64,000 nt of DNA from an uncultured Methanosarcinales archaeon (GCA_964373955.1 CAYJXA010000001.1:108301-172300); one strand, 5' to 3'; counted from the first letter of the stretch, positions 34,001 through 64,000 are shown. Notes: a model not told the origin generated them from the sequence alone. Numbers and translations: made by a program.

Positions 34001-37000
34001 TTATTGATGAGCAGAAGACCATAACTATTCCAGCCAATGATAGTATTAGATGCGATTATCCCCCCGCGGGTGTTCAACATATACAATCCTGGTGCTATTG
34101 TCCCGGACGTGTTCATATAATTCTGGGAGATGTTAGTCCTATTTGCAAAATTTCTAAGTTCTATTGACGCGCTAGCATTGGCAATAGTACTGAGAGTATT
34201 ATTAAAGAGTACACCGTCAAGAGCGCTGTCCCACCAGATTGCGTCTTTGTTAGAGGAAGTATCCGCCTGTTCAACCATCAGGCAGTTTTTAATGGTGACG
34301 TTATGAAAGCCGGTGTTATTAACTCCCTTTCCCTCTGCACTGGAAGAACCATACCTAATAACATTTCCAGTACAATTAATGAAAATGTTGGATGCGTTTA
34401 TAATGAAACAAGTGTTCTCCGCGCTTACATTCTGGTTGAGAGTAAAATTTCTATTGACATACCCACAACTAGCAATGTCCGCAGCAAAACTGCTAAACGA
34501 AGTAGTATTGAAACGCAAGATGCCGGTGTTTACATTATAATTAAAGACAAGGCAAGAATTGCTGCTGATACAATCAGTTCCTGCTCTGATCACGGTAGTA
34601 CTATTCTCATCATACTCTTCCAAACGACGGATACTTTCAACCCTGCTGACATTAAGGGCATAGAGGGTAAGATTCGCGCTGGAGTTTATTCTCCCCGATA
34701 CAAATGCGGAAGTATTAACGGTGATAATATTCTGCCCAATGAAAATATTTCTACCTAATCCAATCCCCAGACTATTATTAGCATTCAAGGTTAAATCCTG
34801 CTGAAAGCTCGTATTCGTCCATCGGATCTCCCCAAAGGTGTTGTTATAAATGAGATAATTTACCAAACCTGCTGATGACGAATCAGAAATCTCAGTGTTA
34901 TTTGACGTAAAGTTATTGTTTAAGAAGGTATTATTTTCAGAAGTGCTTAAAATTGACAACACCGTCGATTTACTCGAATTAAGGGAATTGTAATCGAAGA
35001 GGTTATAGCTGCCATTAACTAGGTTAATAGCAAGGTTAGGGCCAGAGCCAGTCGTATTGATGATGTTAGAACTAACATTATTATAGTTAGAAGTCCTTAA
35101 ACCAAGACCAGTAGAACCATTCCCGATAGAAAACAGAGTATTAGAAAGTAGGATATTGCCCTCTGAAAAGTTGAGCAGGATTCCATGAGAATTGGTAGCA
35201 TTAATAGTGAGGGTGCTGGTGTTAATCACAGAACTATTTGTGTCTTGAAAAACGATACCTGGTCTTTCTCCATCCCCCGCTGCGGTTTCGATAGTGACAT
35301 TAGAGATGGTAATATTAAACCCAGCAGTGATATGAATCCCTTCTGAAAAATTGTTGAGAGCAATATTCCTAATAGTAATATTCCTAAAGCCTGAACTGTT
35401 GATTCCAAACCCGCTTCCGGTTCCCGTGAGTACATACCCGGCACCATTAATCAGGATATTGGAAGCATTAATAGTTAAACAAGTTCCCGTAAAGGTTGTA
35501 TTTTGAGTTAAAGTGAGATTCCCATTGACCGTTCCACAAATGGAAGACCCGTTTCCCAAGGCAGCAAAACTGCTAAAAGAAGTAGTATTAAACCGCAAAG
35601 TACTATCTGCTCCCATACTAAACACGGTACAACTACTCCCCAGGCAATCCACCCCATTGTTAGAAATATTGGTAGAATTCGTATCATAAGCAGGAACTTT
35701 CAGAATAGAATTTATCGCCGTAAAGTTCAAACCAAAGACGGTTATGTTAGCTGTTCCGTTAATCCAGCTGCTCCCGAACGTAGAAGTATTTAACGCAATA
35801 ACATTGCTCCCTATAAAAAGATTCCTTGCTAAACCAATACCCTCACTGCTTGCAACAGAAAGTGTTAGGTTCCGAGTGAAGCTCCTTGTTCCATTATCAA
35901 TCCATTTTATCTCACCAAAAGAGTTATTATAGATGAGATAATTACTGACATTGGTAGCACTATTATCCTGTATCTCCTGGGACCCATTTGTGCTTATATT
36001 CACATTAATGAAATAATTATTTCTCACGCAATCCCCACCGGAACATTCTCCTTGCGAGAAAGAATTAAGAAAAACGGCGCTTTGAGTTCCAAAACTAGTA
36101 ATGTTGTCATTGGTGAAAGTGTTATTTTCCACAACGCCCATCCCTTGAAATCCAAAGGCGGTTGACAAGCTCCCTCCCCCAACGTATACTTTGTTAGAAG
36201 AAAAATTACTGTTAGTAACTCCCATTAAAAGAATCGCCGTTCCACCACTTCCAAAATCGAAGAGGGTATTGGAATTGAAATTCAAGCCAGTGATGTTTCC
36301 CAGATTGAATCCCCCCTGATTAGAATTATTTGTTCTATTAACGTAATTATTAGTAATGTTTAAATCGGTATTTAGAAAAAGAATGTTAGTATTAAGGGTC
36401 ATGGAAGAGGTATTCTGCTCAAAATAATTATTAACAATAGTGGTATGGTTTACATTTTGTAAGCTTATCAAAGCTTGCGTATTAGTTATGCGAGATAGAA
36501 AAGTAACGTTAGTGATATTAGTACCATTAGAATCCTGGACATAAATTTGTTGCGAGAAATTGTAAATAGTGAGATTAAAGATGGTAATATTATTGAAACC
36601 AGTGATATTAATTCCCACGCCAGAACCATTGCTAATAAGGGAATAACCAGAACCATTGAGAAATATGTCTGAACCATTAATGATAAAGCAGTGCGTATCC
36701 GCAACAATATTCTGAGTAAGAGTATAAACTCCGCGAGCAGTAAGATTAGCACAAGTTGATTGCAGGACCGTAGGGATGATGTATCCTGTGGGTGAAATGA
36801 TATTTGAAGGGTTATTCTCTGTTACTATTTCAACTGAAGCCCCAGTAATACTGTTTCCTGTTCCAAGGAAGGAATCCAGTGTAGTCACAATTATTTCTTT
36901 TTCGGAAAAAAAATGTCCCGGAATAGTATCAAAAACCAGAGTGGTAGTTGGCTCACTGACCAATAAGACAAAAATAAAAGAAATCATTCCTGCAAGCAAG

Positions 37001-37062
37001 AAATATTCTTTAGTCTCGTTCAGTGAATTCCTTTTCCAGTTTTTTCTCTCTCCTGATTTCAT
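28054..37062 (-). CDS. Giant (3002 aa) surface protein: N-terminal signal/anchor, multiple N-glycosylation-rich parallel beta-helix repeat modules, Cys-rich knot, C-terminal TM helix and cytoplasmic coiled-coil tail
   Basis: Uninterrupted 9 kb ORF. Asn/Thr/Ser-rich with hundreds of N-x-S/T sequons. The recurring TSFSSFAA motif marks about 6 modules. GGGGGGGG linker, CTTDADCEADQYCFNNQCIEYEC knot, then a TM (WVGLIALLIFLPLLFLTSILM) and a K/E-rich tail. Confidence 0.8.
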   Translation of the reverse strand: MKSGERKNWKRNSLNETKEYFLLAGMISFIFVLLVSEPTTTLVFDTIPGHFFSEKEIIVTTLDSFLGTGNSITGASVEIVTENNPSNIISPTGYIIPTVLQSTCANLTARGVYTLTQNIVADTHCFIINGSDIFLNGSGYSLISNGSGVGINITGFNNITIFNLTIYNFSQQIYVQDSNGTNITNVTFLSRITNTQALISLQNVNHTTIVNNYFEQNTSSMTLNTNILFLNTDLNITNNYVNRTNNSNQGGFNLGNITGLNFNSNTLFDFGSGGTAILLMGVTNSNFSSNKVYVGGGSLSTAFGFQGMGVVENNTFTNDNITSFGTQSAVFLNSFSQGECSGGDCVRNNYFINVNISTNGSQEIQDNSATNVSNYLIYNNSFGEIKWIDNGTRSFTRNLTLSVASSEGIGLARNLFIGSNVIALNTSTFGSSWINGTANITVFGLNFTAINSILKVPAYDTNSTNISNNGVDCLGSSCTVFSMGADSTLRFNTTSFSSFAALGNGSSICGTVNGNLTLTQNTTFTGTCLTINASNILINGAGYVLTGTGSGFGINSSGFRNITIRNIALNNFSEGIHITAGFNITISNVTIETAAGDGERPGIVFQDTNSSVINTSTLTINATNSHGILLNFSEGNILLSNTLFSIGNGSTGLGLRTSNYNNVSSNIINTTGSGPNLAINLVNGSYNLFDYNSLNSSKSTVLSILSTSENNTFLNNNFTSNNTEISDSSSAGLVNYLIYNNTFGEIRWTNTSFQQDLTLNANNSLGIGLGRNIFIGQNIITVNTSAFVSGRINSSANLTLYALNVSRVESIRRLEEYDENSTTVIRAGTDCISSNSCLVFNYNVNTGILRFNTTSFSSFAADIASCGYVNRNFTLNQNVSAENTCFIINASNIFINCTGNVIRYGSSSAEGKGVNNTGFHNVTIKNCLMVEQADTSSNKDAIWWDSALDGVLFNNTLSTIANASASIELRNFANRTNISQNYMNTSGTIAPGLYMLNTRGGIIASNTIIGWNSYGLLLINNSNNSFIANNITGNSTLATIEISDVSTYNNTFRNNTINAVVNFSIYDLSGLETNNTLIYNNSFGMINWTRENLTTNMSLVLGQTIFLQQNLTGILDTAQSLNLNRSARIDIKNLTYSTQPFLLKDGVRCDNDNTLCTIASYDSTTGILTATVASFSNYSATSGSNVTQCGTINNDVTINNNISTDGTCFIVNASNILIEGAGFTITGDGSGSAVLAIGFNNLTVRNLIAVNFSTVIDVRDSVNHTIWNNTIISGNASTGSIGISFSSANRSNISRNNVTTFTNSSPGIRSLTSTLLVIDSNKVVTSGNNSYGLDIAVSSNRLQSNTVITSGLGAVGILINPGERNNTIIFNNVNTTGNAAEGILAQHALSHNISFNRIVTTNSSSLYFVNSSFSIVDFNNITSLGDGIALDFNFITTTGESSSDNNISSNIIRGLVNLGQNASRNTLVENNFTTDTVRSIIIQASAANNTLRNNNISSASTSEIDDQSGNSNLNSFVYNNSFGKIQWTNNSFLDDLDLQVGNALGIGLERSFFIRNNSVTINTSAFTSGRINSSANLTLVGLGFNSVANIQRLETFSTNIDEIKTGGEYCNGTSCLILSFDNASQVLLFNMTSFGSFTAVTADNSSPTISLLSPPNNTLNNTNSTPRFAFNVTDDLAQQGTLDCTLYLNNSEGVTAPYGRNSSTRNATATSITANASLLNGEYHWSINCSDGGTSAVSETRNLTISNFCGRVTASFTLNHDLSSTGDCFIINNSNLFINGSGHSVYSNGSGTGVTINGFNNITLFNFTLNNFTTNIRVQNSNGTNITNMTLVTRTRSGLDLLFVQNSNHTTIANNFFELNSSGTAINTNISFQSKSFNITGNYVNRTNNSNQGGIILRNVSGGIFFSNTLIDFAAFGSTVLIAGVDTMNFSSNRFYSGGGSLGISYDLQGQGVVENNTFTDENITHFGTSSALFLNSFSLGDCTSGDCIRNNYFVNINISSNGSVEISDDSAANVSNYLIYNNSFGGIEWIDNGTGSFLRDLTLDVNNSNGIGVGRNIFIGNNTLAVNTSAFTSGRINSSANITLRGLGFSEVVNIRRLETFNTNANEIRTSGTNCNGTSCTIFSFDNVSQVLLFNTTSFSSFAALDTLCGSVNSSVTLTRNITSSGTCFTVLRSNIIIDGAGYAIIGNGVGLGVNISDVNNVTVKNIFISNFSLGVFESNTNNVTVSNSTFTTNTQGISVDNTSKSIITDTVLHSNVAWAIQIFNSSQANLTGNLIYEEGVQAVLLNLSNHSYLESNIINDSSRISSIISFRSSYSPLTYNGVIYNGSLRYTGGGGSVNVSADNTTIIMADGSNNFNLILGFLNSSSGSTPSNQTIFLRKDSADTNGLTNCSNVVTNLPGSICDFYITNALIANGNSSNYIDNLTALFNSSFNVSSGYTYPLSLQVRETRNITSGVAVENSCNNTFVDNQFENTTLLFTGSACAQTMKYNNSFGSVQWTNISNISLPFELGHGKNLIIADNFFAFNTSAFVGLNRTGTIILQGLTFSSVTGVTKDPLFRSSASEISGSDCLGSGCTLISYSSGTLTFNTSSFSSFTASETITTESEAVTGGGGGGGGASKPKVECTTDADCEADQYCFNNQCIEYECITDDQCSTDEVCIQHSCVKLFDLRILDVTSPVPAGENIMVRYLMKAVSNISGDVVLDFTLEKEGVIKTEGKDVIFIQSGREEIENATLFVPSDLEPGQYTLTIELTYGDYHITSHRQIEVMAAAPLPVVVAPEVVPPKARALVGGAFFQQFKGRALQYSSYWVGLIALLIFLPLLFLTSILMREEYRKYKAFIQTRERKKEVEKTAPSISVTLPSAWGKKQQVELQEEYDQINKNLKSLEYQPEAGTVVPPKPPFGMLRAGQLPPEFLPPASHENISSRVDSLERKRFLNRKLGQIEETIAGLGPADSARKAKEAERISRPKSSLSESVSLKKRLLQVEGELEKLNKELGKEKQ
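30250..36780 (-). repeat. Internal large segmental repeats within the giant gene (for example about 0.9 kb at 35.9-36.8 kb, about 70% identical at protein level to 30.25-31.2 kb)
   Basis: Protein segments FIINGSDIFLNGSGYSLISNGSGVGINITGFNNITIFNLT... and FIINNSNLFINGSGHSVYSNGSGTGVTINGFNNITLFNFT... align over about 300 aa. Confidence 0.5.
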
Positions 37063-50557: not shown

Positions 50558-51835
50558 TTAGTAGTACGTCTTTTCTTCTTCCTCGCCGTCTTTTCGCAGT
50601 CTGCTAAACCCGATTATCAAGCCGATTATAACCAGTAAAACTACCAGCACAATTAAGGCTATTTCTAATCCGTTTCGCAGGCTTAGGCTTTGTTGGCCTG
50701 ACTGAGGCTGAGCTCCAACGACGTTTGCATTCAGGGTCACTGTTTGCAATACTTCATTGTTAGCGCTTACAGTCATGGACACTGGATATTGTCCAGCAGG
50801 AGCATTTCCTGCAGCAGCAACTTGAACATAGACGACTTTGGTCTTGCCAGCTTCCAGAACCACTAAGCTATCACTTAATGAGGTAGTAGCCCAGCTTCCC
50901 GTAGTTGCAGCTAAAACATACGCTTTAGAGCGAGTTCCAGGGTTGTTTAAGGCAACTGCGTACGTAGCAGTACTGCCCGCGGCAACATTTTGGGTTTCCG
51001 GACCAACCGCTAATACTAAAGTGTCTTCGCTATCTTGAGCATCTTGGAACAACTCATTCGCTAACACATTCACGGAGTATGTTTTGGTAACGGTATCATA
51101 TTGATTAAACTCAGCAGTTACTTCCACATTGTATTCTCCAGCGGCTGCATTAGCAGGGATGGACAAGAACATTTCAGGAACGTCTTCGTATTCAACATCA
51201 TCGGTGTCAGCTTCCACGTCAACATATTCAACTGCGCTTACGCCCAATTGAGGGATGCTCACGGTAACTTTGACATCATTTTCGTCCCTATCTCCATAGT
51301 TCTCTAAGAGAACGGTGGTAAGCAAGGATCGTCCTGCTTTAACAGTGTTTCCCGGTGAAAAGGAAACGTCAGCAATGTCTAAGCCATGTCGGGGCGATTC
51401 AACCGCTAAAATGACATCTTGGTAAAGAGCTTCGGTATTTCTATCTAATACTCTCAAGCGAAGCAGATATTGATCGCTGTCGAGCTGCCGAGGCATTTCA
51501 ACGTCTAAGGTAACATATTTGGTCGTGCCAGGCGCAATGTCGAAAACAGGGGTGGAATCTTCCAAAGTTTGTCGATCGGAATATTCGTATCCACTAATTC
51601 TGGCTTCAACTTCAATATTTTGTGCACCAGCTACAGCTTCTAAACCTACTCTCACATGCAAGGTTTCTCCTTCTTCAACCGCAAGAACGGTTGGACTTGC
51701 CGGATCCGTATTTATTTCGTCGCCATTAATCTTAACTGTTCCCCAATCAAGATTAGTGCTGTCTAAAGCGCTAACCATGGAGATAGTTAACAAACTAATG
51801 ACGAACAACGCCATTATACTTAACAACTTTCTCAT
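50558..51835 (-). CDS. Cell-surface protein with signal peptide, Ig/CARDB-like beta domains and C-terminal TM anchor
   Basis: MRKLLSIMALFVISLLTISMVSA signal. C-terminal hydrophobic helix then KDGEEEEKTYY. Confidence 0.55.
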   Translation of the reverse strand: MRKLLSIMALFVISLLTISMVSALDSTNLDWGTVKINGDEINTDPASPTVLAVEEGETLHVRVGLEAVAGAQNIEVEARISGYEYSDRQTLEDSTPVFDIAPGTTKYVTLDVEMPRQLDSDQYLLRLRVLDRNTEALYQDVILAVESPRHGLDIADVSFSPGNTVKAGRSLLTTVLLENYGDRDENDVKVTVSIPQLGVSAVEYVDVEADTDDVEYEDVPEMFLSIPANAAAGEYNVEVTAEFNQYDTVTKTYSVNVLANELFQDAQDSEDTLVLAVGPETQNVAAGSTATYAVALNNPGTRSKAYVLAATTGSWATTSLSDSLVVLEAGKTKVVYVQVAAAGNAPAGQYPVSMTVSANNEVLQTVTLNANVVGAQPQSGQQSLSLRNGLEIALIVLVVLLVIIGLIIGFSRLRKDGEEEEKTYY

Positions 51836-51968: not shown

Positions 51969-54632
51969 CTACACTACCGTAACCAGGCGATACGTAGAGG
52001 ACCTGCTTTCGCCGTTGCCGACGGACACTTTGATCAGATACTCACCGGGAACAGCATCGTACGGGATCTCTACCGTCAGCAATTTATTGACACTCCTTCC
52101 ATCGCGAAGGTCAAACTCAGCACTGGCTCGATACACGTTCAAATCGTACATCATCACGCTGATTTGCAAATCTTCTAAATCTTCCTCGCCTTCATTTCTG
52201 ACGCCGACTCGCAGCAAAAGCATATCGCCGGCAACTACTTCTTCCGTTGCCAAATGTACGCTGGTAAAGCGGATATCATTGGTAGGAGCAGCATAGCGGC
52301 AATTGCCCACGTCTAAGGTGGCGCGGGAATTGTAATTCAAAGCGGTCGGATCAGTGCAGCCTAAGACATCGACGGGAAGCTCGTCCTCATCGCAAACGCC
52401 ATTACTGTTTTCATCAGGACAGGGAGGTACTTCCTCATCATCGCAAATACCATTCCCATTAGCATCAATGCATTCATCAACGGTATCACAAATGCCGTCT
52501 TCGTCGACATCTGCAGGACAGGGAGGGACATCCTCTTCGCAAGCATCTCCTATACCATCCCCGTCGCTATCTGCTTGAGTGGGGTTAAAGACTGCTGGAC
52601 AATTATCTTCATCATCGTTAATTCCATCCCCGTCGCTATCTTCTTCAGAGTCATAAACACAACTTGCTGGATCAGAGATCCCAGCGAAAGGATTGTAATT
52701 GAGAGCCGCTGGATCAAGGCAACCTGATTCTTCTTCATCACAGGTTCCATTACTATTTCCATCAGCGCATACTTCTTCCTCATCGCAAACGCCATTACTA
52801 TTTTCATCAGGACAAATTTCATCTTCATCGCAGATGCCGTTGCCGTTGGTATCGGGGCAGGGAGGCGCTTCTTCGTCATCGCAGATCCCATTGCCATTTA
52901 CATCCGGACAAGGAGGGACTTCTTCATCATCGCAAATGCCATTTCCATTTATGTCGGGACATGGTTCTTCGTATTCACAGCTACCATCGTCAGTAGTTGC
53001 TTCGGGATTATAATTAGTAGCGGTAGCATCCGTACACCCAGGAACTTCTACGACGGGAAGATCTTCAATAGTTATGGAAATGCTTTCAAAGTCTTCTAAT
53101 TCACCATCAGAAACAATAAAAGTAACTTCATATACTCCGGATTGTGCTAAGCCGGGAGTCCAGGTGAAAGTAGCAGTACCGTCTCCATTATCAATAAAAG
53201 TTGCTCCGACATCCACGAGATCAAGATCTTCAGCCTCGAAAGTTAACGCATCTCCATCAGGGTCGATAGCAGTAAGTAGTAATTCAAGTGTTTCACCTTC
53301 CGTAACCGTTTGATCGCCAATAGGCGCTAAAACGGGTGGCCTATTTACATTGCCTACACTAATAGTAATTGTTTCCGTATCAATTAAAGAGCCATCGGTA
53401 ATAGTGAACGTAACTTCATAATTTCCCGTTTGTTCAAAGGTGGGCGTCCAGCTGAAAGTTTGGGTTACTGCATCAAACGTAGCTCCTTCCGGAAGTCCGC
53501 TTGCAGAGAACGCAACCGCATCTCCATCCGGATCACTGCCGCTTACCGTGAACGTTAACAATTCCATCTCCGCTACACTTTGATCGCCAATGAGATCAAG
53601 CACCGGAGCGCGATTGGTATTGGCAACAGTAATAGTAAATTCTTGTTCTACACTATCAAAGCCATCGGAAACTCGAATGGTAACATCATGATCACCAGCA
53701 TCATTATAGTCTGGAGTCCAACGGAGACGCTGCAATTTGTCAATCGTCATCCCTGTAGGATATGTGGTCAAAGTATATGTTAAATCGTCTTCCGGGTCAG
53801 CATCGCTGGCGGTAACAGTATAACTATAAAGAGAACCTTCGGCTGCTTCCGTAACCGGCGTGGAGGTAATCGCAGGAATTCTGTTGACATCATGAACTCT
53901 AATAGTAATATATTCATCGGGAGAATAATTCTCGCCATCGAATGCGCGTAGTACTAAAGTAAGGGTTCTTTCTTCACTCGGATGTTGAACTTCATCATAC
54001 TCAGGAGTGTAGGTGATGCTGGTGATTACGCCGCTCTCTCGAACTGCACTCACATCAGCATCAACCAAAGGCAGATTCCAGCATGAAGAGCCAAAACCTA
54101 CGTTGATACAATATCGTTGAAGTAAAGCTACCTCTAAATCATCCCCATCTTGATCAACAGTAACAATTCGGGGAATCCATAACGTTTCTTCCTCATTAAC
54201 ATCATAATTGTCGGGCCACACTGAAACTGCAGGAACGGTATCGACGTTTAAGTTAAGATATTGAAAATCTTCTCCTTCTGTATTCATCACATGAACCCTA
54301 ACAATATAATCTCCCGCAAGTCCCTCGGTGTTAACTGTAAATTCTTGAATATAGGGATCATCAATATCCGCAGCAACAGTAGAATCAGCAAAAACAGTTC
54401 TTACAATAGTGCTTCCACGCAAAACATCAATCCATAGGCCGATATTTTCGGTACTGGTGACGTACACTAACAATTCAGCATTTTCACCTTGATCGACAGA
54501 TAAAGAATCATCGCCATTAGCGGTCCATTCACTGGTCAAATCAATAGTGTGATCTGCATATGCCAATGAGATTATTGTACTAGCTATTAAAATGAATGCA
54601 ATTATTCCCCCTAGGATTTTACTTGTTTTCAT
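51969..54632 (-). CDS. Surface protein with tandem thrombospondin type-3-like Ca-binding repeats and Ig-like/cadherin-like domains
   Basis: Signal peptide. At least 10 repeats of CPDxNGNGICDDEExPP and DSDGDGINDDEDNCPAVFNPTQADSDGDGIGDACE (TSP3 consensus DxDxDGxxDxxDNCP..N..Q.D.D.DG.GD.CD). Confidence 0.7.
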   Translation of the reverse strand: MKTSKILGGIIAFILIASTIISLAYADHTIDLTSEWTANGDDSLSVDQGENAELLVYVTSTENIGLWIDVLRGSTIVRTVFADSTVAADIDDPYIQEFTVNTEGLAGDYIVRVHVMNTEGEDFQYLNLNVDTVPAVSVWPDNYDVNEEETLWIPRIVTVDQDGDDLEVALLQRYCINVGFGSSCWNLPLVDADVSAVRESGVITSITYTPEYDEVQHPSEERTLTLVLRAFDGENYSPDEYITIRVHDVNRIPAITSTPVTEAAEGSLYSYTVTASDADPEDDLTYTLTTYPTGMTIDKLQRLRWTPDYNDAGDHDVTIRVSDGFDSVEQEFTITVANTNRAPVLDLIGDQSVAEMELLTFTVSGSDPDGDAVAFSASGLPEGATFDAVTQTFSWTPTFEQTGNYEVTFTITDGSLIDTETITISVGNVNRPPVLAPIGDQTVTEGETLELLLTAIDPDGDALTFEAEDLDLVDVGATFIDNGDGTATFTWTPGLAQSGVYEVTFIVSDGELEDFESISITIEDLPVVEVPGCTDATATNYNPEATTDDGSCEYEEPCPDINGNGICDDEEVPPCPDVNGNGICDDEEAPPCPDTNGNGICDEDEICPDENSNGVCDEEEVCADGNSNGTCDEEESGCLDPAALNYNPFAGISDPASCVYDSEEDSDGDGINDDEDNCPAVFNPTQADSDGDGIGDACEEDVPPCPADVDEDGICDTVDECIDANGNGICDDEEVPPCPDENSNGVCDEDELPVDVLGCTDPTALNYNSRATLDVGNCRYAAPTNDIRFTSVHLATEEVVAGDMLLLRVGVRNEGEEDLEDLQISVMMYDLNVYRASAEFDLRDGRSVNKLLTVEIPYDAVPGEYLIKVSVGNGESRSSTYRLVTVV
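52380..52960 (-). repeat. Tandem DNA repeats encoding the TSP3-like motif array
   Basis: Recurrent units ttcctcatcgcaaa(c/t)gccatt(a/c)c...tcaggacagggagg within the gene. Confidence 0.5.
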
Positions 54633-54695: not shown

Positions 54696-56252
54696 TTAAA
54701 ATGTGCCCAAGAGGCTGAATGCAAATTCTGCACGATTGTTTTGGACATCGATTTGCGCCGTTCCTCGTACTCCAACTGCATAACCATCTCTATTTCCATC
54801 ACGGAAGAGATCAACTGCAACCCCTGGAGCAACACCGTAACTTCTGGTGCTACCTGATTCTGCGCAAGCATCATTTGAGTCAGTGCCACAGCTAACTGCA
54901 TGTGGTTCACCAACAGCTCTACCATCCGCATCAAACAATTGCGACGTTCTCGTTCGAGCAACGGCAACTTCTCTATCGCTTGCGGTAAGGTCAACAATGC
55001 CACTAACTCCTGGAACCCATTTTTGACTAGGTTTCCAAGGTGTTCCTACTCGTAACTGAGCATGACCACGATAATGGTCAGTTGTTCCTCTCGTTCCAAT
55101 CATAGAAGAATCTTCTCGGTAATCTCCTTGAGGTTGGGATTGTGCTACGGGATCCAGATCGGAGGTGTCTGTAACTGCTCCGCCATGTCCAACTCCGCCG
55201 CCTAAGCCAACGGTGACGGAATCCCCTCGGTAGGTAACTGCAGCAACGACTGCGCCAGCAGCTGCTCCTCGATATCCTGCTTGCACTCCTGCTTCCAGCC
55301 AGATGCGTCGAGTATTATCATGATGTCCGAAGACGTTACGAGTAATCCGTTGTTCGAGTTCATGATAAGCTGCATCGTAAGCACCAGTTGCTTGGGTGCA
55401 TTGTCTTGCGACTGCATCCGCATGTTCTCTTCGCGCAGGTAATCCTCGTTGCCGTCTTTCAAGTTCTCGACGAAGTTCAATAGCTCTTAAAGCTCTACCC
55501 TCATCAGTTAAACCTTGTTCACTGGCAAGAGCATCAATTCTCGCAGAGAGAGAAGCTGCTTCCTGTGCAACGGCACTTTCTTCTCGCGCAACATCACGCT
55601 GAGCTTGATATGCTCCAGCACAAGTATCTTTCATTTTTTGTGCAATTCCAGCTAATCGTGCAAATTCAGGGGTTAATGCTTCCCTAAAAATTCTATGCAT
55701 ATATTGTGTGGTTGGATCTTTTTCCATTCTGTCCACTCTTACTACCAGATCTTCATAGCCTTCTAATCTCTCCACAAGCCCAGTAAGACTTGCTAAAAGG
55801 CCTTCTTGAGCAGCAGAAACACTTTGTTGATTTCGTTCAAGTGCATCTTGTCGTCCTGCTAAATCATCCTGGCGTTCACTTAATCCTACAACACCTTGAC
55901 CTAAAGCATCAACCGCACTTTGAAGACCGCTATAATCCTCGCCAGTTCTTTCTTGCAAAGCATCAATTCTTTCCTGTAAGCGTTGTAATTCGGCTTCATA
56001 ATCCGCATGCGTATGAGGATGTTCATGCGCTCGCACTGCTGGAGCAACTGCTCTTTTTCGTGCAGGTCTCTTTGCAGGTGCTGCTGGAGCTGCAGGACTT
56101 GGGGCTGCAGCAGCTGGTGAACCGCCAGGAACGAAAGTCCCGCCTTGCGTACCATCATCTGCAAACGCAGTTGCGGAAAGTAATGAAATTCCAACTGCTG
56201 CTGCAGGAGCTAAAACATATTCTCCAATCATTCTGGTTAATGAATTTGACAT
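54696..56252 (-). CDS. Secreted Ala/Arg-rich protein: signal peptide, long coiled coil, Gly/beta-rich C-terminal domain ending in Phe (bacterial OMP-like terminus)
   Basis: LAPAAAVGISLLSATAFADD signal. Heptad-rich middle. C-terminus ..NNRAEFAFSLLGTF. Confidence 0.5.
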   Translation of the reverse strand: MSNSLTRMIGEYVLAPAAAVGISLLSATAFADDGTQGGTFVPGGSPAAAAPSPAAPAAPAKRPARKRAVAPAVRAHEHPHTHADYEAELQRLQERIDALQERTGEDYSGLQSAVDALGQGVVGLSERQDDLAGRQDALERNQQSVSAAQEGLLASLTGLVERLEGYEDLVVRVDRMEKDPTTQYMHRIFREALTPEFARLAGIAQKMKDTCAGAYQAQRDVAREESAVAQEAASLSARIDALASEQGLTDEGRALRAIELRRELERRQRGLPARREHADAVARQCTQATGAYDAAYHELEQRITRNVFGHHDNTRRIWLEAGVQAGYRGAAAGAVVAAVTYRGDSVTVGLGGGVGHGGAVTDTSDLDPVAQSQPQGDYREDSSMIGTRGTTDHYRGHAQLRVGTPWKPSQKWVPGVSGIVDLTASDREVAVARTRTSQLFDADGRAVGEPHAVSCGTDSNDACAESGSTRSYGVAPGVAVDLFRDGNRDGYAVGVRGTAQIDVQNNRAEFAFSLLGTF

Positions 56253-56269: not shown

Positions 56270-57835
56270 TTATAGCTTATCTAATCCCAAACCAAATCTT
56301 ATGTCTTTGTCTCTGCCAACTTGAACATGAGCAGCACAGGCGTCCACTCCTTTTGCAATAATATCTGCCCTGAGAGGACCGTACAATGAATGCGTTTGAG
56401 CTCCAGGAACTGAACCAAGAGTAAGATCAACTAACTGGCCAATACCTAATTCACATGCCCCTCGTGCATCATTTCCTTTGTAACTACGAATAGAAACGGC
56501 AACAGGAACTCTTGCATACGCACCAACAATCTCTTGCCAAGAGTGATTAGCAACATACTGTCGAGCATCCCCTAACATAGTTGCTAAAAAATCAGTAGGT
56601 GCAGGACATACTGGAGCAGGTGGACAAACTACAGCAGGAGCTGGAACCACGGGTGGAACCGCCGGAGCTGTTGGAGCCACCGGTGCAGCTGGTACAACGG
56701 GTGCTGCAGGAGCAGCAACATATGGTGCAGCGGGACTAGCTGCAGCTGGTACTCCACCATCCATTCTTGGAGAGGGAGTTTGTGCAATATAAGGAGTTCC
56801 CGGAGTTGCTGGTGCAATAGGAGCAACGGGCGGAACTGGTGCAGCAGGTGCAGGAACTACTGGAGCAACTGGTGCTACAGGAGCCGCTGGTTGAGCTGGA
56901 GCTCCACCATCTAAACGAGGAGGAGGTGAAGATAATGCGCCAGCAGACGCTGCTGAAGGTGCTCCGCCGTCAGCTCTTGTAGCTGCTACGGGAGGAGCAG
57001 GACTTGCACTCGCGTCACGTCGTTGAGATTGAGCAGATGCAGAGCCATCGAGAGGAGCAGAATACCCTGCTCCGTCGCTTCCTGCATCTAAATTAGGATG
57101 AACGCCAGCGTCTGCATGAGAAACTGGTGCTGGACTAGGTCCACAGCCCCAGCCTTGATATGAACTGAAACCAATTGCTGCTGCTAACACTAACGTGCCT
57201 AAGCCAGCATACGTTGCAATTCTTTCCCCGCGAGTTCGAGGTCGAGGAACTAATGCTCGCAATTGTGCTCCCCATCCTAAAGTCTGAAGATTTTGTTGAC
57301 CTTGCCCTTGTTGTTGAACAGTCATTTGTCCTAAAGCAGCGAAGACAGCTACTCCATCACTTTGTGGAGCTAAACCAAAATAACTTGCGGTATCAGAACC
57401 ATGAAGGGTAGGTTGAAGAGCTTGATGCTGCGCAAAAACGTCCGCGATTGTTTTAGTGCCAACCCCAATCTGCGCCCATTCTTCCGCTCTAGCAGCAGGC
57501 AATTGTGCCACCACTCTGGGCAAGCCAACCAGTGCATGATCTGCTGCGTCAAAACTTTCATACGCAACAAAAGTTCGCAAAATTCGAATAAGATCGTCCC
57601 CTACTCTGGTTCTGTCCGCCGCCGGAACTACTTGCGCTCCCGGGGCGGCGCCTTCGCCAGTGATGTAAGTAACTGCAGATAATAAACGAGCATCGTCAAA
57701 ATTGTATGCAAGAGGCTGGGCAGGTGGTTGTGCTTGGTAATGATTACGAACTTCATCTTCAAAATCTGAAAGTCGTTGTAATAAATCCCGCGCTTCTTGT
57801 GTTTGAAAAGTATGCTGTACTTGTCGTGCTGCCAT
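56270..57835 (-). CDS. Membrane protein with cytoplasmic N-domain, one TM, long Pro/Ala-rich linker and C-terminal extracytoplasmic domain
   Basis: Start chosen at the ATG with a gaggt RBS (MAARQVQ...); the ORF track begins at an upstream GTG. PAxPV repeats over about 150 aa. Confidence 0.5.
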   Translation of the reverse strand: MAARQVQHTFQTQEARDLLQRLSDFEDEVRNHYQAQPPAQPLAYNFDDARLLSAVTYITGEGAAPGAQVVPAADRTRVGDDLIRILRTFVAYESFDAADHALVGLPRVVAQLPAARAEEWAQIGVGTKTIADVFAQHQALQPTLHGSDTASYFGLAPQSDGVAVFAALGQMTVQQQGQGQQNLQTLGWGAQLRALVPRPRTRGERIATYAGLGTLVLAAAIGFSSYQGWGCGPSPAPVSHADAGVHPNLDAGSDGAGYSAPLDGSASAQSQRRDASASPAPPVAATRADGGAPSAASAGALSSPPPRLDGGAPAQPAAPVAPVAPVVPAPAAPVPPVAPIAPATPGTPYIAQTPSPRMDGGVPAAASPAAPYVAAPAAPVVPAAPVAPTAPAVPPVVPAPAVVCPPAPVCPAPTDFLATMLGDARQYVANHSWQEIVGAYARVPVAVSIRSYKGNDARGACELGIGQLVDLTLGSVPGAQTHSLYGPLRADIIAKGVDACAAHVQVGRDKDIRFGLGLDKL

Positions 57836-57928
57836 GATGGTATACCTCGTACGAATTGTTAATACCACTGCAAAGTAGACACTTCTATATAAATCTTTTG
57901 CACTAAATTGCTAGCTGGGAGTGATAAC

Positions 57929-59122: not shown

Positions 59123-59188
59123 AGAGAAAAGAGAATTTTTGCTATTATATATAGGTTGTGGGAAGAACCGTAAAAGAAAAGAAAGATA

Positions 59189-60013
59189 TTACAACGGATT
59201 TCCAATATCCGTGAAAATAATTTTTCCTGTATCTAAATTCGTACGATAGGGTTTATCATTTGGAACAGCCATAATTAAGCCCACTAAATCATGCCGGGCA
59301 TTAAAGACACCACAGCCACTATTTCCTGGACCCCCTTGCATATCGGTAATGTAAAATGAAACATTGGGATTTTTGTCATCGTGAACAACAAATCCTGCAT
59401 GCCCACGCAAGGTTACCACTTCTCTATTCCGGTAGCAAACCGCATACACATTTTTATCCCCGTTCTTAAAATCGTATTTTGGATCAATTCCAATCCTGCC
59501 CGCGCGAAAGAAAGGTTTTTCTAAAGTAATCCGCGCCAGATCCGTATCCTTATTATGACGAACATTTCCTGCATGTAAGTCCACCCGCACACTCTCTCCC
59601 TGCGCGAGATAACTTTGGCTTTGTATATAGAGGGGAGCTCGGCGAGCTACGCTTTCTTCAATAACGTGGTTAGCAGTATACAACGTGTAAGGATCAACCA
59701 AGATTCCCGTTCCTACCCCTCCCGACGCAGTAATTCTAACTACATTATCTATATTTCGGGCCATGGGCCCGTCAACATTGAGTGTTTCAGAGAGAGATTG
59801 AGCAGCGAGAGGTTTGTCCCGAGCTATTTTTTCCACCAACTGAGGAACGGCCCCTTCCAGAAAGAAAGAACTTAATACTTGAATTCCAACTGCCGCCGCA
59901 AGGTATAACATTCCTCTCCCGTAATTAGAAGAAGCTAGCCCTTGGCGTTTTTGTTCTATTCTAAAGTCGCCTGCGCGTTCATCTTCAATGATAGTTCGTT
60001 GATCTTCTGCCAT
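59189..60013 (-). CDS. Membrane-anchored trypsin-like serine protease (S1B/V8-like, GNSG motif)
   Basis: TANHV (His), D, GGPGNSGCGVF (Ser) triad order. N-terminal TM. Confidence 0.6.
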   Translation of the reverse strand: MAEDQRTIIEDERAGDFRIEQKRQGLASSNYGRGMLYLAAAVGIQVLSSFFLEGAVPQLVEKIARDKPLAAQSLSETLNVDGPMARNIDNVVRITASGGVGTGILVDPYTLYTANHVIEESVARRAPLYIQSQSYLAQGESVRVDLHAGNVRHNKDTDLARITLEKPFFRAGRIGIDPKYDFKNGDKNVYAVCYRNREVVTLRGHAGFVVHDDKNPNVSFYITDMQGGPGNSGCGVFNARHDLVGLIMAVPNDKPYRTNLDTGKIIFTDIGNPL

Positions 60014-60023
60014 AATGTAATAC

Positions 60024-61547
60024 CTACAGTTTGTTCAATTCCTCATGAAGCCGTGAGGCCATAGTTGATGCTTGATCAAAATAACCCCCATCATCGCAAA
60101 AGGGAGCCGGCTTGACTAATTGAGGAGTTTCCTGCGCCAAATATTCATTCATGATTCTCGCTGCCAAGGTATCGGAGTCAGCTTGCAATCGGGCAACGCT
60201 CCGGGGCAACGTCCATAACAATCCGGGTGCGAAGCGTGCACTATATTCGGACTGCGCTAAAGCAAGTGCATAAAATTCGATGGGAGACAATTCAACTGCC
60301 AGCTGCAAATGGAATCCATCCCGAGCTTTTTCAAAAGTCGTTTTGGATGAAAGAACCGTTGCCCTCACATCCTGATGAGAGTATCCTCTAGCTGACTCGT
60401 GAGCTTTAATTTTGTCCAACTCTTCCTGATATTTCCGTCCAAGATCCTGCTCCAGTTTCCGTAGCACATCCATTTCTTGCTGAGCAAAGGAAGTAAAGCC
60501 AGCAAAATTATCCAAGTAGGTTCGACGGGCTATTTCTGCGGATCCAGTCCTGGCTAACCGCTGTTCTAAGTCTTTTAGGCAGGGCTGTAATTCCGTAAGG
60601 CGTTCCAGAGGAGGAACCCCTTTTTGATCTTTGTACATTTTCTTGTAGCAGACGTAAAAATTAGCGGTGGTGGAAAGATTCAGCCAGTACTTCTGTTTGA
60701 ATTCTTTAGCTCGATCCAAGAGAGCGTTAAATTTCTGCGCATACTGTGTTCCCAATTGTCCAATCTCATCCAGCTGCAAGGTCTCTTGAAATGCCGTTAG
60801 ATCCTGCCGACGTTGAGCCGCTACATGAGTTCGATGCCCAAGATAAATTGGAGTAATAATTGATGCCGCCAACGCTAAAGCCGCGACAACTGACCAAGTT
60901 CTGGTTTTTGAGCGTAGAGCCCGTTCCGGTTCAGCAGTCATAACCTCTACCAAATCAGCGAATCCTCGTTGGGCAAATACTTTTCGTGCCTGAATTTCAC
61001 CGGCAAAAGCATCAACCAGATGGTTCATGAGATAATAACGGACATATTCATTCTTGATCAGGGGCTTGGTTTCTGCCGGCGGTTCCGCTTGAGTTGCAGC
61101 GGTTCCCTCCTCTTTTTTGACTGTTTTCTTTTTCTGTTCTTCTTCCAGCGGCAATTGATCAAATAAAAAGCGAAGGGAATTGGCCATTGGCCTAACTAAA
61201 GCAAGAGCATCTACCAACGCTTCCAATTTTCGGGCAACAGTCTTTTTCCGGCGGGTATGTTGTACTCGCTGGCCCAACGTGGGAGTATACTCTAAGGCAT
61301 TAACTTGAGTTATGAAGTCTCCTAAACTTATGCCATACGTGCTTACAAAATTATAAAATCCCCGCTGCTGTAATTCCCGAACACTGCGTATTCCATCGCA
61401 AGTTTTCACAACATCAGAACACATCTCTGTAATAAAAGTACAAGCATCTTCCAAGGAATTAACGGTAACTGGCACGGGCAGTCCACCAACGGCAGCATAA
61501 CCCTCCAAAGGATCAGCGATCTCAAAGCGAGGAGTGATTCTTCTCAT
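60024..61547 (-). CDS. Arg-rich coiled-coil protein with central TM helix
   Basis: 507 aa. TM at TRTWSVVAALALAASIITPIYLG. Its start overlaps the stop of the VWA gene (TAATG). Confidence 0.45.
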   Translation of the reverse strand: MRRITPRFEIADPLEGYAAVGGLPVPVTVNSLEDACTFITEMCSDVVKTCDGIRSVRELQQRGFYNFVSTYGISLGDFITQVNALEYTPTLGQRVQHTRRKKTVARKLEALVDALALVRPMANSLRFLFDQLPLEEEQKKKTVKKEEGTAATQAEPPAETKPLIKNEYVRYYLMNHLVDAFAGEIQARKVFAQRGFADLVEVMTAEPERALRSKTRTWSVVAALALAASIITPIYLGHRTHVAAQRRQDLTAFQETLQLDEIGQLGTQYAQKFNALLDRAKEFKQKYWLNLSTTANFYVCYKKMYKDQKGVPPLERLTELQPCLKDLEQRLARTGSAEIARRTYLDNFAGFTSFAQQEMDVLRKLEQDLGRKYQEELDKIKAHESARGYSHQDVRATVLSSKTTFEKARDGFHLQLAVELSPIEFYALALAQSEYSARFAPGLLWTLPRSVARLQADSDTLAARIMNEYLAQETPQLVKPAPFCDDGGYFDQASTMASRLHEELNKL

Positions 61548-62764
61548 TAGAGCGCCCCCTTCTTCATTTTATCGTTCAGCGTTCGGCTAAATGCCTGCAT
61601 ATCTTCTAAGCGTGAAATGTGAGAGTACCAGGTTTGAGGAATTCCTGTTTCTCTAATTATTTGATCTTTACGAGGATTATATCCTCCGTCAGTTCTCCAT
61701 TCAACGAAGAATACTCGATTTAAAGACGCAGTGCCCATGACTCGTTGCAACTCTGCAATATTCTGGCGCATCGATTGCTCGCTAAAGACATCATTATCAG
61801 CAATAATATAAATATCTACGGCAGAACTTGAACCTTTCAGGATTCTTTCCAAGAGAGCATAATCAATATACGTTCCGTCACATTCTACTTTGGAAAATTG
61901 ATTTGCTAAGGTAGGCATATTTCGAGTAAAAGGAGTAGCGTAACTTTTCGTCGAGAAGACAAAGGCGCTTACGTCTGCATTTAATTCATGCACATAAAAA
62001 TCAGCGATTGATAGGGCAAAGGCAGAAGGCAAATAGACCGTATACCCTTGGCTATTAAACGATCTCTGTTGATAGTTACGGGGATTAGCACACATGCTTC
62101 CGGACGTATCAACCAGAATAACTGCTTTATTGTCACGAACTACTTCTAATGCTTTTTCTGGTTTTTTCTCTTTCGCTTTCGAACCGTAATCTAGCTGTCC
62201 GCGAGGAACAATAAAGCTGGTGTCCCGATTAAAAGTAAGAGTTTTGTCTCCATCCAATTTACGCAATTCAAATTGATGTCCCCGCTCCACATCAGCTTTG
62301 GGATTAAGATATTTTTGCGGCCCTTGCTCCTGCACATCCGTCGTGCCCGGATCAGCTTTCGGTTGATCAAGCTTGAAACGAAATTCTTTTGCCGTGAGCA
62401 TTAAAGCGGTAGCGTCCATTTCCTGCGGTGTGCGACCACTTTCCCCTCCCCTGAAATGCCCTAGGTCTTCTGCTTTTGCTCCTTCCTTGAGAAAATCCGC
62501 TAAGCTTTGAGAAGAATCTAATTCCACCTCTCCCGGAGCACGGAGTTTTTCTTCCAATGCTGATTGGCCTTCCAGAGATTTTTCCATCATCTCCTGCTGC
62601 TGACCTTGATTAGAAAGGGAACTAACGTAATCTGCGTGCTCTTTGCCACTGCACGTGAGTCTTCCCAAAGTGTAGATTAGAGAAAGATAAAAAATGCCGC
62701 GCCCGAGCTGCTTAAACCAACTTCCCGGTTCTTTTTTCTTTTCTTTTCCGTTTTTTGTCGTCAT
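61547..62764 (-). CDS. von Willebrand factor type A (VWA) domain protein with N-terminal TM
   Basis: MIDAS motif VILVDTSGSM..., then T and D positions. Start overlaps the upstream gene stop (TATGA). Confidence 0.65.
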   Translation of the reverse strand: MTTKNGKEKKKEPGSWFKQLGRGIFYLSLIYTLGRLTCSGKEHADYVSSLSNQGQQQEMMEKSLEGQSALEEKLRAPGEVELDSSQSLADFLKEGAKAEDLGHFRGGESGRTPQEMDATALMLTAKEFRFKLDQPKADPGTTDVQEQGPQKYLNPKADVERGHQFELRKLDGDKTLTFNRDTSFIVPRGQLDYGSKAKEKKPEKALEVVRDNKAVILVDTSGSMCANPRNYQQRSFNSQGYTVYLPSAFALSIADFYVHELNADVSAFVFSTKSYATPFTRNMPTLANQFSKVECDGTYIDYALLERILKGSSSAVDIYIIADNDVFSEQSMRQNIAELQRVMGTASLNRVFFVEWRTDGGYNPRKDQIIRETGIPQTWYSHISRLEDMQAFSRTLNDKMKKGAL

Positions 62765-63441
62765 AGTCCAACCAACTGAATGAGATATCGTTCAGCATCC
62801 TCTAAATGTCCCGGTGCTTTTCCCGGTACGTTTTCTTTGGTTACGTTGGCCGAGTCAGGAGATTTATAATATATCAATGCTTCCAGTCCTTCTGACGTTA
62901 CCGTTCCTTTACCAGTAGCAGAAAGATTGGGAGCAGGAATGGCTTTCGCGAGAGGGACAGTTAACTTATATCCTCCCGCAGTTTTGCGAACATGCGTGCT
63001 ATAATCTTTTCCGGCAATTAAAACTTGCTGGGGCAGCTGCGGAAAAAAAAGAGATAAGGTTGTTTCTGCAATAGACTGGGGAGCATACACTTCCGTGGTT
63101 TGCCGGGATCGCTCACTATATTTTGCCCCGTCCCATTTCTTCACTGCAGTACCGGGATGGAAAGTAACTGGTTTCCTGCCCTGCGCTACTAATTCAAGCC
63201 GGCTGAAATGAAGAGGATCATATCCCATCGCTTCAACAATGGGCACCTGCACTTTCTGTTCTTTGTAGACTATTCGACTATGCCTTGGCGGGCTTCTTCC
63301 TAAAACATAGGCTAGTCCTGCTACTGCCAACACTCCCGCGACTGCTACGGCATTCCTCCGGAGAGCAGAATAACTAGGCAATCGTTCTTTTCCTTCCCCG
63401 CGGATGTAGCCGAGGAATGTTCTACTTTCTCTTTGGTTCAT
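62761..63441 (-). CDS. Single-pass membrane protein, hypothetical
   Basis: TM AVAVAGVLAVAGLAYVLG. Operonic overlaps on both sides. Confidence 0.4.
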   Translation of the reverse strand: MNQRESRTFLGYIRGEGKERLPSYSALRRNAVAVAGVLAVAGLAYVLGRSPPRHSRIVYKEQKVQVPIVEAMGYDPLHFSRLELVAQGRKPVTFHPGTAVKKWDGAKYSERSRQTTEVYAPQSIAETTLSLFFPQLPQQVLIAGKDYSTHVRKTAGGYKLTVPLAKAIPAPNLSATGKGTVTSEGLEALIYYKSPDSANVTKENVPGKAPGHLEDAERYLIQLVGL

Positions 63442-63976
63442 GGAGTGGTTGGTGTGGTTGGTTTGGCTGGTGTGGAAACTTTACAGAATATTGCCGACCA
63501 TCAGTATATTCTATTTTAATATCCTGAAGATCCATTCCGGCAAAGGTCATTTCTTTTGTTTCTGATCCAATAGCGGTGCGATAATCCAATTCTTGCGTGT
63601 ACGTTCCTTTTCCTTGTCGGAAAGTAAACAAGACGCGCTCCACCGGATGTGCGGAATTTTTGGTGAATTGAACGTTATATGCATTGGTAGCACTATTCAC
63701 AAAATCATCCAAGCTCAATCTTAATTCACCACTCGTCGCATTACCTAGTGGAACGTATCTCCCGTTAATCATGAGTCCACCTTTATTATCGGATTTCCCC
63801 GAAACTTCGATTCGGGTATGCGCGCGTTCATCAATGCTGACTCGATCAGACGTGGTGAGATAAATAATAGAGAAACATAACGCTGCTAATCCGGTTGCTT
63901 TCAATCCGGTTCTCGCGCGGCGTTCGCTCCACAGCCGACGGTACAAAGGCATTTCGAGTTTTGGATCCATAGTCAT
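63422..63976 (-). CDS. Single-pass membrane protein, hypothetical
   Basis: TM GLAALCFSIIYL. Overlaps the next gene by 20 nt. Confidence 0.4.
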   Translation of the reverse strand: MTMDPKLEMPLYRRLWSERRARTGLKATGLAALCFSIIYLTTSDRVSIDERAHTRIEVSGKSDNKGGLMINGRYVPLGNATSGELRLSLDDFVNSATNAYNVQFTKNSAHPVERVLFTFRQGKGTYTQELDYRTAIGSETKEMTFAGMDLQDIKIEYTDGRQYSVKFPHQPNQPHQPLHEPKRK

Positions 63977-64000
63977 TTACCTGTATTGTTGCGCTCTCTG

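Follow-up and report, generated by a model that had tools for sequence, protein, structure and literature searches.

Pairs consisting of a MoxR-class AAA+ ATPase and a protein with a VWA (von Willebrand factor type A) domain are widespread, and both the mechanism and the client are known for a handful of them (NorQD, CbbQO and RavA-ViaA); orphan operons with such a pair and no known role are common, and the membrane-embedded, Bat-like versions have gone without a functional assignment for 25 years. The partners of MoxR-class rings, with CbbQO among the examples, hold the client through a metal ion-dependent adhesion site (MIDAS) or a pore finger during ATP hydrolysis. For NorQD (PMC13036017), and as a general argument (PMC7159879), the VWA partner is described as gripping the substrate while the ring remodels it. 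Bat/BatI-like "aerotolerance" operons, which occur in Bacteroides, spirochaetes and Rhizobium (BB0170-BB0176 in Borrelia), encode MoxR, a DUF58 protein, the transmembrane (TM) VWA proteins BatA/BatB, and TPR/BatD/SH3 proteins; in the Borrelia operon the VWA domain encoded next to MoxR has been shown experimentally to be periplasmic (PMC5700661). Here we describe, in a 64,000-nucleotide (nt) stretch of DNA (CAYJXA010000001.1:108301-172300 of assembly GCA_964373955.1; hereafter the window), five adjacent genes that are genes 3-7 of a seven-gene archaeal operon, which combines a MoxR-class ATPase with a MIDAS-VWA protein, further membrane proteins and a predicted trypsin-like serine protease.

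We refer to the five genes in the window, all of which lie on the minus strand, by the working names G3, G4, VWA protein, G6 and protease. Their coordinates, taken from the open reading frame (ORF) listing and the sequence, and those of the elements that border them, are:

63977..64000, minus strand: end of the upstream gene, G2 (last seven codons and TAA stop, 63979-63977)
63976..63422, minus strand: G3, 184 amino acids (aa)
63441..62761, minus strand: G4, 226 aa
62764..61547, minus strand: VWA protein, 405 aa
61547..60024, minus strand: G6, 507 aa
60013..59189, minus strand: trypsin-like serine protease (predicted), 274 aa
59172..59186, minus strand: T-rich tract TCTTTCTTTTCTTTT, read from the sequence, directly after the protease stop codon

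A first-pass annotation of the window had described five co-oriented, overlapping genes at 59189-63976, and this description stands: the ORFs are present there, the junctions as read from the sequence are, in order, a 20-nt overlap, a 4-nt overlap (ATGA), a 1-nt overlap (TAATG) and a 10-nt spacer, and the arrangement recurs in independent contigs. For G3, the gene callers on the identical public contig and the orthologs favor the second ATG, at 63970, which would give a protein of 182 aa. That the operon runs past the end of the window, as had also been claimed, is borne out by the stop codon of the upstream gene. At the opposite end, the T-rich tract is a plausible candidate for an archaeal oligo-T terminator at the operon's 3' end, and because this tract follows the last stop codon and a TATA-like box (at ~59151-59160) precedes the next gene, which encodes an aromatic-amino-acid-type permease, we place the end of the operon at ~59189. 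Comparison with the orthologous locus L002 (~86% identical) gave ratios of nonsynonymous to synonymous substitution rates (dN/dS) of 0.05-0.11 for five genes of five (G3, 0.11; G4, 0.10; VWA protein, 0.047). The five genes are real and under strong purifying selection.

The genes upstream of the window were documented from a Logan contig identical to the window (L001), which carries 270 aa of G2, and from orthologous loci. In L002, L003, L005 and L095, an AAA_5 ATPase gene followed by G2 lies directly upstream of G3; the AAA_5 gene, of the MoxR class, is the kind of further gene (an AAA+ MoxR-like ATPase) that the first-pass annotation had suggested looking for. The full order is AAA_5 ATPase (~360-372 aa), G2 (~281-293 aa), G3 (~170 aa), G4 (~222 aa), VWA protein (~405 aa), G6 (~510 aa) and Trypsin_2 protease (~280 aa). 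At least five lineages share this order, which was found with tight junctions (-20 to +21 nt across the complete loci) in the independent contigs L002, L003/L004, L005-L007, L008, L094 and L095; L003 belongs to genome CAYOKQ01, and L005/L089 to contig Ga0105164_10001177. An AAA_5 protein of 372 aa (P0014) is presumably the ATPase encoded on the same contig as the VWA and G6 proteins of the window (P0001 and P0007), since the contigs listed for all three have one length, 298,406 bp. The flanking genes differ in every lineage (an RNA cyclase and a LAGLIDADG endonuclease; a SAM synthetase; an ABC transporter; the permease in the window), and we therefore conclude that the seven genes travel as a unit. 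Indeed, the check for co-localization proposed in the first pass showed the homologs to be strictly co-localized and not scattered. The seven genes are co-inherited and translationally coupled, and five of their products carry hydrophobic anchors.

A locus from a sister clade (L093) has the order AAA_5-G2-G3-G4-VWA, with an opposite-strand gene immediately after the VWA gene, and is without G6 and the protease. From this order it follows that the first five genes constitute a core, and that G6 and the protease constitute an accessory pair. The sister-clade ATPase itself (L093:1001-3259) is 752 aa long and has a ~400-residue N-terminal extension with a long coiled coil before the AAA_5 module. 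We considered whether this extension might replace G6, an idea that found no support, as hhalign showed no similarity between the extension and G6.

The ATPase matches Pfam AAA_5 at 2e-13 to 3e-11, and its best single-domain matches in the Protein Data Bank (PDB) are CbbQ (6e-13) and NorQ (7e-13), at ~51 bits. Midasin gave lower E-values, but because these are the sum of matches to six AAA domains at ~6-20 bits each, we took CbbQ/NorQ to be closest. Among PHROGs the ATPase matches the CobS-like phrog_249 (1e-10), and no match to a CbbQ_C domain was obtained. Walker A (G-x-T-G-x-G-K), the Walker B Glu, a sensor-1 G-N-F, a Q-R arginine finger and a sensor-2-like R287 are invariant in seven divergent ATPases of the operon; on the strength of these motifs the protein is predicted to be catalytically active, and it is very probably an active MoxR-class enzyme nearest to the CbbQ/NorQ group. 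In the sense of Snider & Houry 2006, we are dealing with a single-module AAA_5 ATPase whose catalytic motifs are intact and whose gene lies beyond the window, on related contigs, and in all loci the operon of this ATPase also encodes a MIDAS-VWA protein. G2, a protein of ~290 aa, begins with a hydrophobic helix that is borderline in part of the orthologs and more distinct in others. A beta-alpha pattern and an "NGSS/DSSS" motif had led us to guess that G2 is a degenerate VWA domain without a MIDAS; hhalign comparisons with VWA profiles were negative twice and gave this guess no support, so that it is kept as an idea only.

The 405-aa product of gene 5 starts with a Lys/Arg-rich stretch, followed by a weak hydrophobic anchor, ~170 residues of linker and, at the C-terminus, the VWA domain; its features are:

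62648..62698, minus strand: N-terminal hydrophobic segment (residues 23-39), borderline as a TM helix in the protein of the window and more distinct in its relatives
62201..62227, minus strand: motif R-x-T-S-x-I-x-P-R (residues 180-188), ~25 residues ahead of the first strand of the VWA domain; in the close family, VPRG
61550..62137, minus strand: VWA domain (residues ~210-405), predicted with AlphaFold2 and Foldseek
62096..62110, minus strand: MIDAS motif D219-T-S221-G-S223 (GAT ACG TCC GGA AGC), from the sequence; T298 and D323 complete the metal site

The Pfam VWA match is below threshold (E=0.19), and a PDB sequence-profile search with the protein gave nothing meaningful. In the AlphaFold2 model, however, residues 210-405 have a pLDDT of ~85, with residues 1-209 forming an N-terminal helix and a low-confidence linker, and Foldseek matched the modeled domain, at probability 1.00, to PDB structures of the INTS14 VWA domain, PitA, the MDN1 MIDAS domain (PDB 8ql1, E=1.5e-5), vWF A1, the PilB minor pilin and Rpn10. 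Moreover, D219, S221, S223, T298 and D323 are invariant in 11/11 family members, those of the sister clade included, and the MIDAS metal site is therefore complete. The model thus predicts a genuine VWA fold with a complete MIDAS, in agreement with the DxSGS-containing VWA domain called in the first pass. The linker is predicted to be disordered yet contains conserved motifs. In particular, R180, T182, S183, P187 and R188 do not vary among 11 sequences, again including the sister clade, in a region where the AlphaFold2 model is not confident; the R-x-T-S-x-I-x-P-R motif may be a site of processing or may extend the domain structurally on its N-terminal side. The notion that "VPRG" is a thrombin-like cleavage site for the operon's own protease was set aside as speculation only, given that P-R alone is kept in the wider family and that the S1 pocket is unreadable from sequence. 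A lipobox following the anchor was likewise rejected: most members have a Cys (P0016 does not), but positions -3/-2 miss the lipobox consensus. An unrelated archaeal pair of genes (L091:17-3372, also L090) encodes a MoxR-like ATPase of 620 aa and a 516-aa protein in which an HExxH motif lies N-terminally and a VWA domain C-terminally; the latter domain is 26% identical to that of the operon, P0027 is a protein of the same type, and this type may represent the nearest outside VWA lineage.

The 274-aa product of the last gene matches Pfam Trypsin_2 (PA clan) at 3.1e-10, with 41.4 bits against a cut-off of 27.6. Three residues align, in order, with the catalytic triad of PDB 9ect, a solved chymotrypsin-fold protease:

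59858-59908, minus strand: TM helix of the protease (residues 36-52)
59666-59668, minus strand: catalytic His116
59540-59542, minus strand: catalytic Asp158
59318-59320, minus strand: catalytic Ser232

The triad is kept in the proteases of the window, L003, L005 and L095; that of L008 keeps the His and the Asp, and its contig stops short of a Ser motif that could be aligned reliably. These findings, together with a convincing TM helix, indicate that the protein is a predicted membrane-anchored, trypsin-like serine protease, as the first-pass annotation had it.

The remaining products are G3, whose R-rich N-terminal tail is followed by a short TM helix (residues ~27-43) and by a C-terminal domain that spans ~130 aa and is conserved; G4, in which a TM helix (residues ~31-47) is followed by a conserved G-R-x-P-P-R and then by a C-terminal domain with TAVKxWD, ERSRQ and HLEDAERY; and G6, which appears to be an all-helical bitopic protein with a central TM segment (residues 220-236; 60840-60890) between domains of ~215 aa and ~270 aa. 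Neither these three proteins nor G2 had a match in Pfam, NCBIfam, PADLOC, PHROGs or PDB sequence profiles, and G2, G3, G4 and G6 define four new protein families. The assembly as a whole was recognized by no curated library (Pfam, NCBIfam, PADLOC, PHROGs), the only matches in PADLOC and PHROGs being generic AAA and protease matches, and the statement that the architecture is no described system therefore holds for these four libraries. Nor did a full-text search of the literature return a paper that connects Woesearchaeota to MoxR or VWA systems, and a search for DPANN, MoxR and VWA gave none describing such an operon.

TM segments were assessed with two hydrophobicity scales, and with the permease of the window and phosphoglycerate kinase as controls. 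Convincing single TM helices were found in G4 (226 aa), whose hydrophobic helix is the best of the operon set, in G6 (507 aa) and in the protease (274 aa); that of G3 is short. The first-pass claim that every product has a TM segment is good for G4, G6 and the protease and can be extended to G3 with its short helix, but it is doubtful for the VWA protein, whose segment is marginal in the window ortholog. Topology was predicted by the positive-inside rule, with Lys and Arg summed over the 20 residues on each side of the helix in all orthologs. The resulting counts suggest that the domain of G2 is cytoplasmic (0 on the N-terminal side, 27 on the C-terminal side), that the VWA protein (81 and 30; n=15 family members) has its N-terminus inside and its C-terminus, with the VWA domain, outside, and that the protease domain is outside as well (37 and 21). 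There was no clear bias for G3 (41 and 34), G4 (38 and 35) or G6 (28 and 22). The ATPase and the domain of G2 are accordingly assigned to the cytoplasmic side, and an extracytoplasmic position is predicted for the protease and the VWA domain.

Taken together, these results raise the possibility, to which we give roughly even chances, that the operon specifies a membrane-spanning MoxR/VWA remodeling system that is Bat-like by analogy and without homology; we are much surer that it is a MoxR/VWA operon than we are of the transmembrane coupling and the outward topology that such a system would involve. A cytoplasmic AAA+ hexamer would act on the membrane-tethered, cytoplasmic G2, and also on those tails or domains of the bitopic G3, G4 and G6 that lie in the cytoplasm. 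ATP-driven remodeling on the inside would in this way lead to an extracytoplasmic complex being assembled, activated or reset. On the outside, the VWA domain would hold an acidic ligand through the metal of its MIDAS, and the anchored protease and G6 would serve as an optional output module that processes a component of the complex or a bound target. Maturation of the envelope or of a surface complex, host contact, and defense are candidate roles.

Several observations weigh against this proposal. The anchor of the window's VWA protein does not outscore the best stretch found in a soluble protein, and is clearer in the relatives; charge bias leaves the orientation of G3, G4 and G6 ambiguous; no fold was detected for G2 in PDB or Pfam searches; and the structure model of G6 is unreliable (pLDDT 49). 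In addition, one protease (L094:3857-4630) seems to have a Glu at the position of the catalytic His (YTTYEVL vs YTANHVI) with the Ser motif kept, and may be an inactive or altered enzyme, or reflect an alignment artefact. Finally, a MIDAS-VWA domain on the outside cannot dock on a cytoplasmic ring in the way that NorD, CbbO and the MIDAS domain of midasin do, and therefore G2 or the bitopic proteins would be needed as transducers. In a bolder form of the proposal, which we think improbable, the operon would encode a hitherto undescribed kind of trans-membrane machine of an episymbiotic DPANN archaeon, in which the cytoplasmic AAA+ motor exposes, resets or releases an outward-facing MIDAS adhesin through the bitopic proteins, with the protease acting at the site of host contact; if true, this would amount to an ATP-controlled device for attachment or for processing of the host surface.

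Other explanations lead away from a membrane-spanning remodeling system, one being that there is no functional unit and that the genes are chance neighbors or gene-calling artefacts. Four of the seven products have no recognizable domain, as this explanation would have it; the order and the overlaps are nevertheless kept across lineages down to 21-40% identity, dN/dS is 0.05-0.11 for every gene and each protein has invariant motifs, conservation data that refute the artefact and leave it a negligible chance. It is conceivable, although unlikely, that the operon serves in conflict or in defense against viruses, as a MoxR-vWA system of the "ternary" type; the AAA+/VWA components would then set the threshold at which an invader is sensed at the membrane, with the protease as the effector or as a peptidase that releases a signal. 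According to Kaur et al. 2020, MoxR-vWA conflict systems often contain trypsin- or caspase-like peptidases, and a subset have TM segments and act near the membrane (PMC7159879); the operon resembles them in its trypsin-like peptidase, in its patchy distribution with flanks that vary by genome, and in having in G6 and the protease what acts as a swappable module. Homing endonucleases and toxin-antitoxin-like genes are found near some loci (PBECR/DUF2283 at L002; AbiEi/AbiEii ~6 kb away at L003), and the protease has weak PADLOC matches to the protease domains of defense proteins (RT-Protease, 6e-8; LmuA, 1e-5). However, Pfam and NCBIfam searches at E<=1 found no VMAP, iSTAND, FtsH, beta-propeller or effector-associated domain, there was no system-level PADLOC match and no match in viral contigs, and the flanks consist mostly of housekeeping genes and genes of unknown function, with a recognized defense pair within 10 kb at one locus only. 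A protease predicted to face outward would be unusual for an abortive-infection effector, and the hosts are unicellular DPANN archaea, whereas the conflict systems are enriched in multicellular bacteria.

A further idea is that of a cell-surface adhesion or fiber apparatus, in which G3 and G4 would be pilin-like, the VWA protein would be a tip adhesin with a MIDAS (as in Gram-positive pili and the minor pilins of type IV/Tad systems) and the protease would mature the subunits. G3, G4 and the VWA protein each have an N-terminal hydrophobic helix and a globular domain predicted to be outside, the Foldseek matches include PitA, the S. sanguinis PilB minor pilin, Mfa5 and the LapA vWFA domain, and the neighborhood is rich in large surface proteins; moreover, DPANN archaea are generally regarded as living in attachment to a host. 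Non-pilus VWA folds (INTS14, MDN1, Rpn10, Ku) match equally well, however, and the alignments reveal no class III (prepilin) signal, the leaders being 20-30 residues long without a conserved K/R-G/A site. The sole ATPase in the loci is the AAA_5 protein, and they contain no pilus or secretion ATPase (T2SSE or TadA-type), platform protein, prepilin peptidase or sortase; within the operon there is likewise no secretion/pilus ATPase, pilin signal or adhesin repeat. The first-pass annotation had named surface-assembly, adhesion or secretion-associated systems as the setting of such combinations, and the outward placement predicted for the VWA domain and the protease would suit this; we take the MoxR-class AAA+/VWA systems, to which the annotation alluded only among its checks, as the appropriate frame. 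We regard a fiber apparatus as a poor prospect. Poorer still are the prospects of a split AAA+ protease for membrane-protein quality control, in which the ring would unfold substrates recruited by the VWA protein and pass them on to the trypsin-like peptidase. One operon does encode an AAA+ ATPase together with a peptidase, and both are membrane-associated, but the two are predicted to be on opposite sides of the membrane, and the sister clade keeps the other five genes without the protease. Trypsin_2/HtrA-type peptidases are ATP-independent enzymes, and docking on an AAA+ ring is not known for any of them. Those MoxR-class rings that have been studied are, furthermore, remodelers and not processive unfoldases (PMC13036017).

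Among the archaeal housekeeping genes of the window are those for ABCE1/RLI and a geranylgeranyl reductase. The ABCE1 protein shares 70-76% identity with those of Woesearchaeota/Nanoarchaeota metagenome-assembled genomes, one of which is the genome carrying L003, and related loci adjoin the genes for ribosomal proteins S17e and L44e. These genes point to a DPANN archaeon of the Woesearchaeota type as the host, and the operon has so far been seen in few such archaea. A word-indexed search of 5.8 billion proteins yielded 6 matches for the VWA protein, 4 for G6 and 5 for the ATPase profile, all of them from this operon. An exhaustive HMMER search of 1.84 billion cluster representatives with a VWA-domain profile yielded 15 proteins at E<=1e-3, among which are six clear family members, the sister clade P0020-P0025, and P0027, a metallopeptidase-like HExxH protein with a VWA domain. 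Every component of the operon is nearly an orphan. No instance of the operon was found among the viral contigs of IMG/VR, and a viral or mobile origin is on this ground not supported.

The composition of the operon had been described as unlike that of native proteins, and one product as Arg-rich. Neither description survives comparison with the other 41 genes of the window. The GC content of the operon is 0.45 versus 0.414±0.031 for these genes (~1 standard deviation (SD) above), and GC at third codon positions (GC3) is 0.384 versus 0.379. Arg makes up 7.0% of residues versus 5.0±2.3%, so that "Arg-rich" is an overstatement, and Arg, Ala and Gln are each within ~1 SD, inside the spread of the window's other genes. 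With GC3 equal to the background, a foreign origin deduced from composition was dismissed; there is no good evidence for a recent foreign origin of the operon.

Elsewhere the window contains further ORFs and domains of note:

54696-56252 and 56270-57868, minus strand: adjacent putative genes of 518 and 532 aa, downstream of the permease gene
51969-54632, minus strand: 887-aa protein with a signal-anchor-like N-terminus and He_PIG/Big_9/cadherin-like Ig domains
50558-51835: NPCBM_assoc domain
28054-37062, minus strand: ORF of 3002 aa, with Ile+Asn at 22% and with repeats of the NosD and right-handed beta-helix kinds

The composition of the 518- and 532-aa ORFs is extreme for the genome (Ala 16-19%, Lys ~1%, first-position GC 0.67-0.70, third-position GC 0.23); one of them has a long Pro/Ala-rich linker, and neither has a match above the Pfam or PHROGs threshold. 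The 887-aa protein also has a Cys/Asp-rich run of "CPDxNGNGICDDEE" repeats that resemble thrombospondin type 3 repeats and, with the NPCBM_assoc domain, makes the neighborhood rich in surface proteins. The 3002-aa ORF looks like a giant surface protein, a kind of protein that is common in DPANN genomes.

Woesearchaeota genomes are very small, and a conserved seven-gene, ATP-consuming membrane system is thus a sizeable investment, which makes the operon a candidate for a part in envelope biogenesis, host interaction or defense. For classification, it contributes four new families and a five-gene core that is separable from the G6-protease pair. If the predicted topology is right, the operon would be an independent, minimal archaeal solution with Bat-like logic, the ATPase and a non-MIDAS partner being inside and the MIDAS-VWA domain outside, to which a dedicated protease has been added.

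How far the likeness to described systems goes can be stated for each of them. With midasin/Rea1, the operon shares matching AAA_5 modules and the match of the MDN1 MIDAS domain to the VWA model, but midasin is a soluble eukaryotic giant with six AAA domains that functions in ribosome assembly. With NorQ/NorD and CbbQ/CbbO (the "CGN" MoxR subfamily), it shares a one-module AAA_5 ATPase encoded together with a MIDAS-VWA protein; those systems, in contrast, comprise two genes, are cytoplasmic, have a VWA protein that docks on the ring and serve a known enzyme (NOR or Rubisco), whereas here there are seven genes, five hydrophobic anchors, a VWA domain predicted to be extracellular and no gene for a client enzyme nearby. 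Like the ternary conflict systems (PMC7159879), the operon has a MoxR and vWA core, extra conserved components, a trypsin-like peptidase, TM segments (present in some of their subtypes) and a modular output; unlike them, it has a third component that is not VMAP, iSTAND, FtsH or a beta-propeller, lacks effector-associated domains, encodes its peptidase as a separate membrane protein and not as a fusion, resides in a DPANN host and has no clear defense-island context.

The Bat-like operons share with it a MoxR-class ATPase gene followed by that of a non-MIDAS partner protein, and several single- or few-pass membrane proteins that include a VWA protein with an intact MIDAS and a TM anchor (a predicted one here). 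The VWA domain of Borrelia BB0173 faces the periplasm (PMC5700661), a placement like the outward one predicted here, and function is undefined in both. On the other hand, the ATPase here is AAA_5 (CbbQ/NorQ-like) and that of Bat operons AAA_3, G2 is not DUF58, and there is one VWA protein where Bat has two, with the addition of a trypsin-like protease and the helical G6, and a DPANN host; none of AAA_3, DUF58, BatA_N, BatD, TPR and SH3 was found at E<=1 in the seven proteins or their orthologs. With accessory proteins that have no detectable sequence similarity, the likeness is one of architectural analogy and not of family membership. The operon belongs to none of the four ternary conflict subtypes, nor to the Bat family, and its membership is in the broad MoxR-class AAA+/VWA kind only; that general kind is known, and the seven-gene version of it described here is new.

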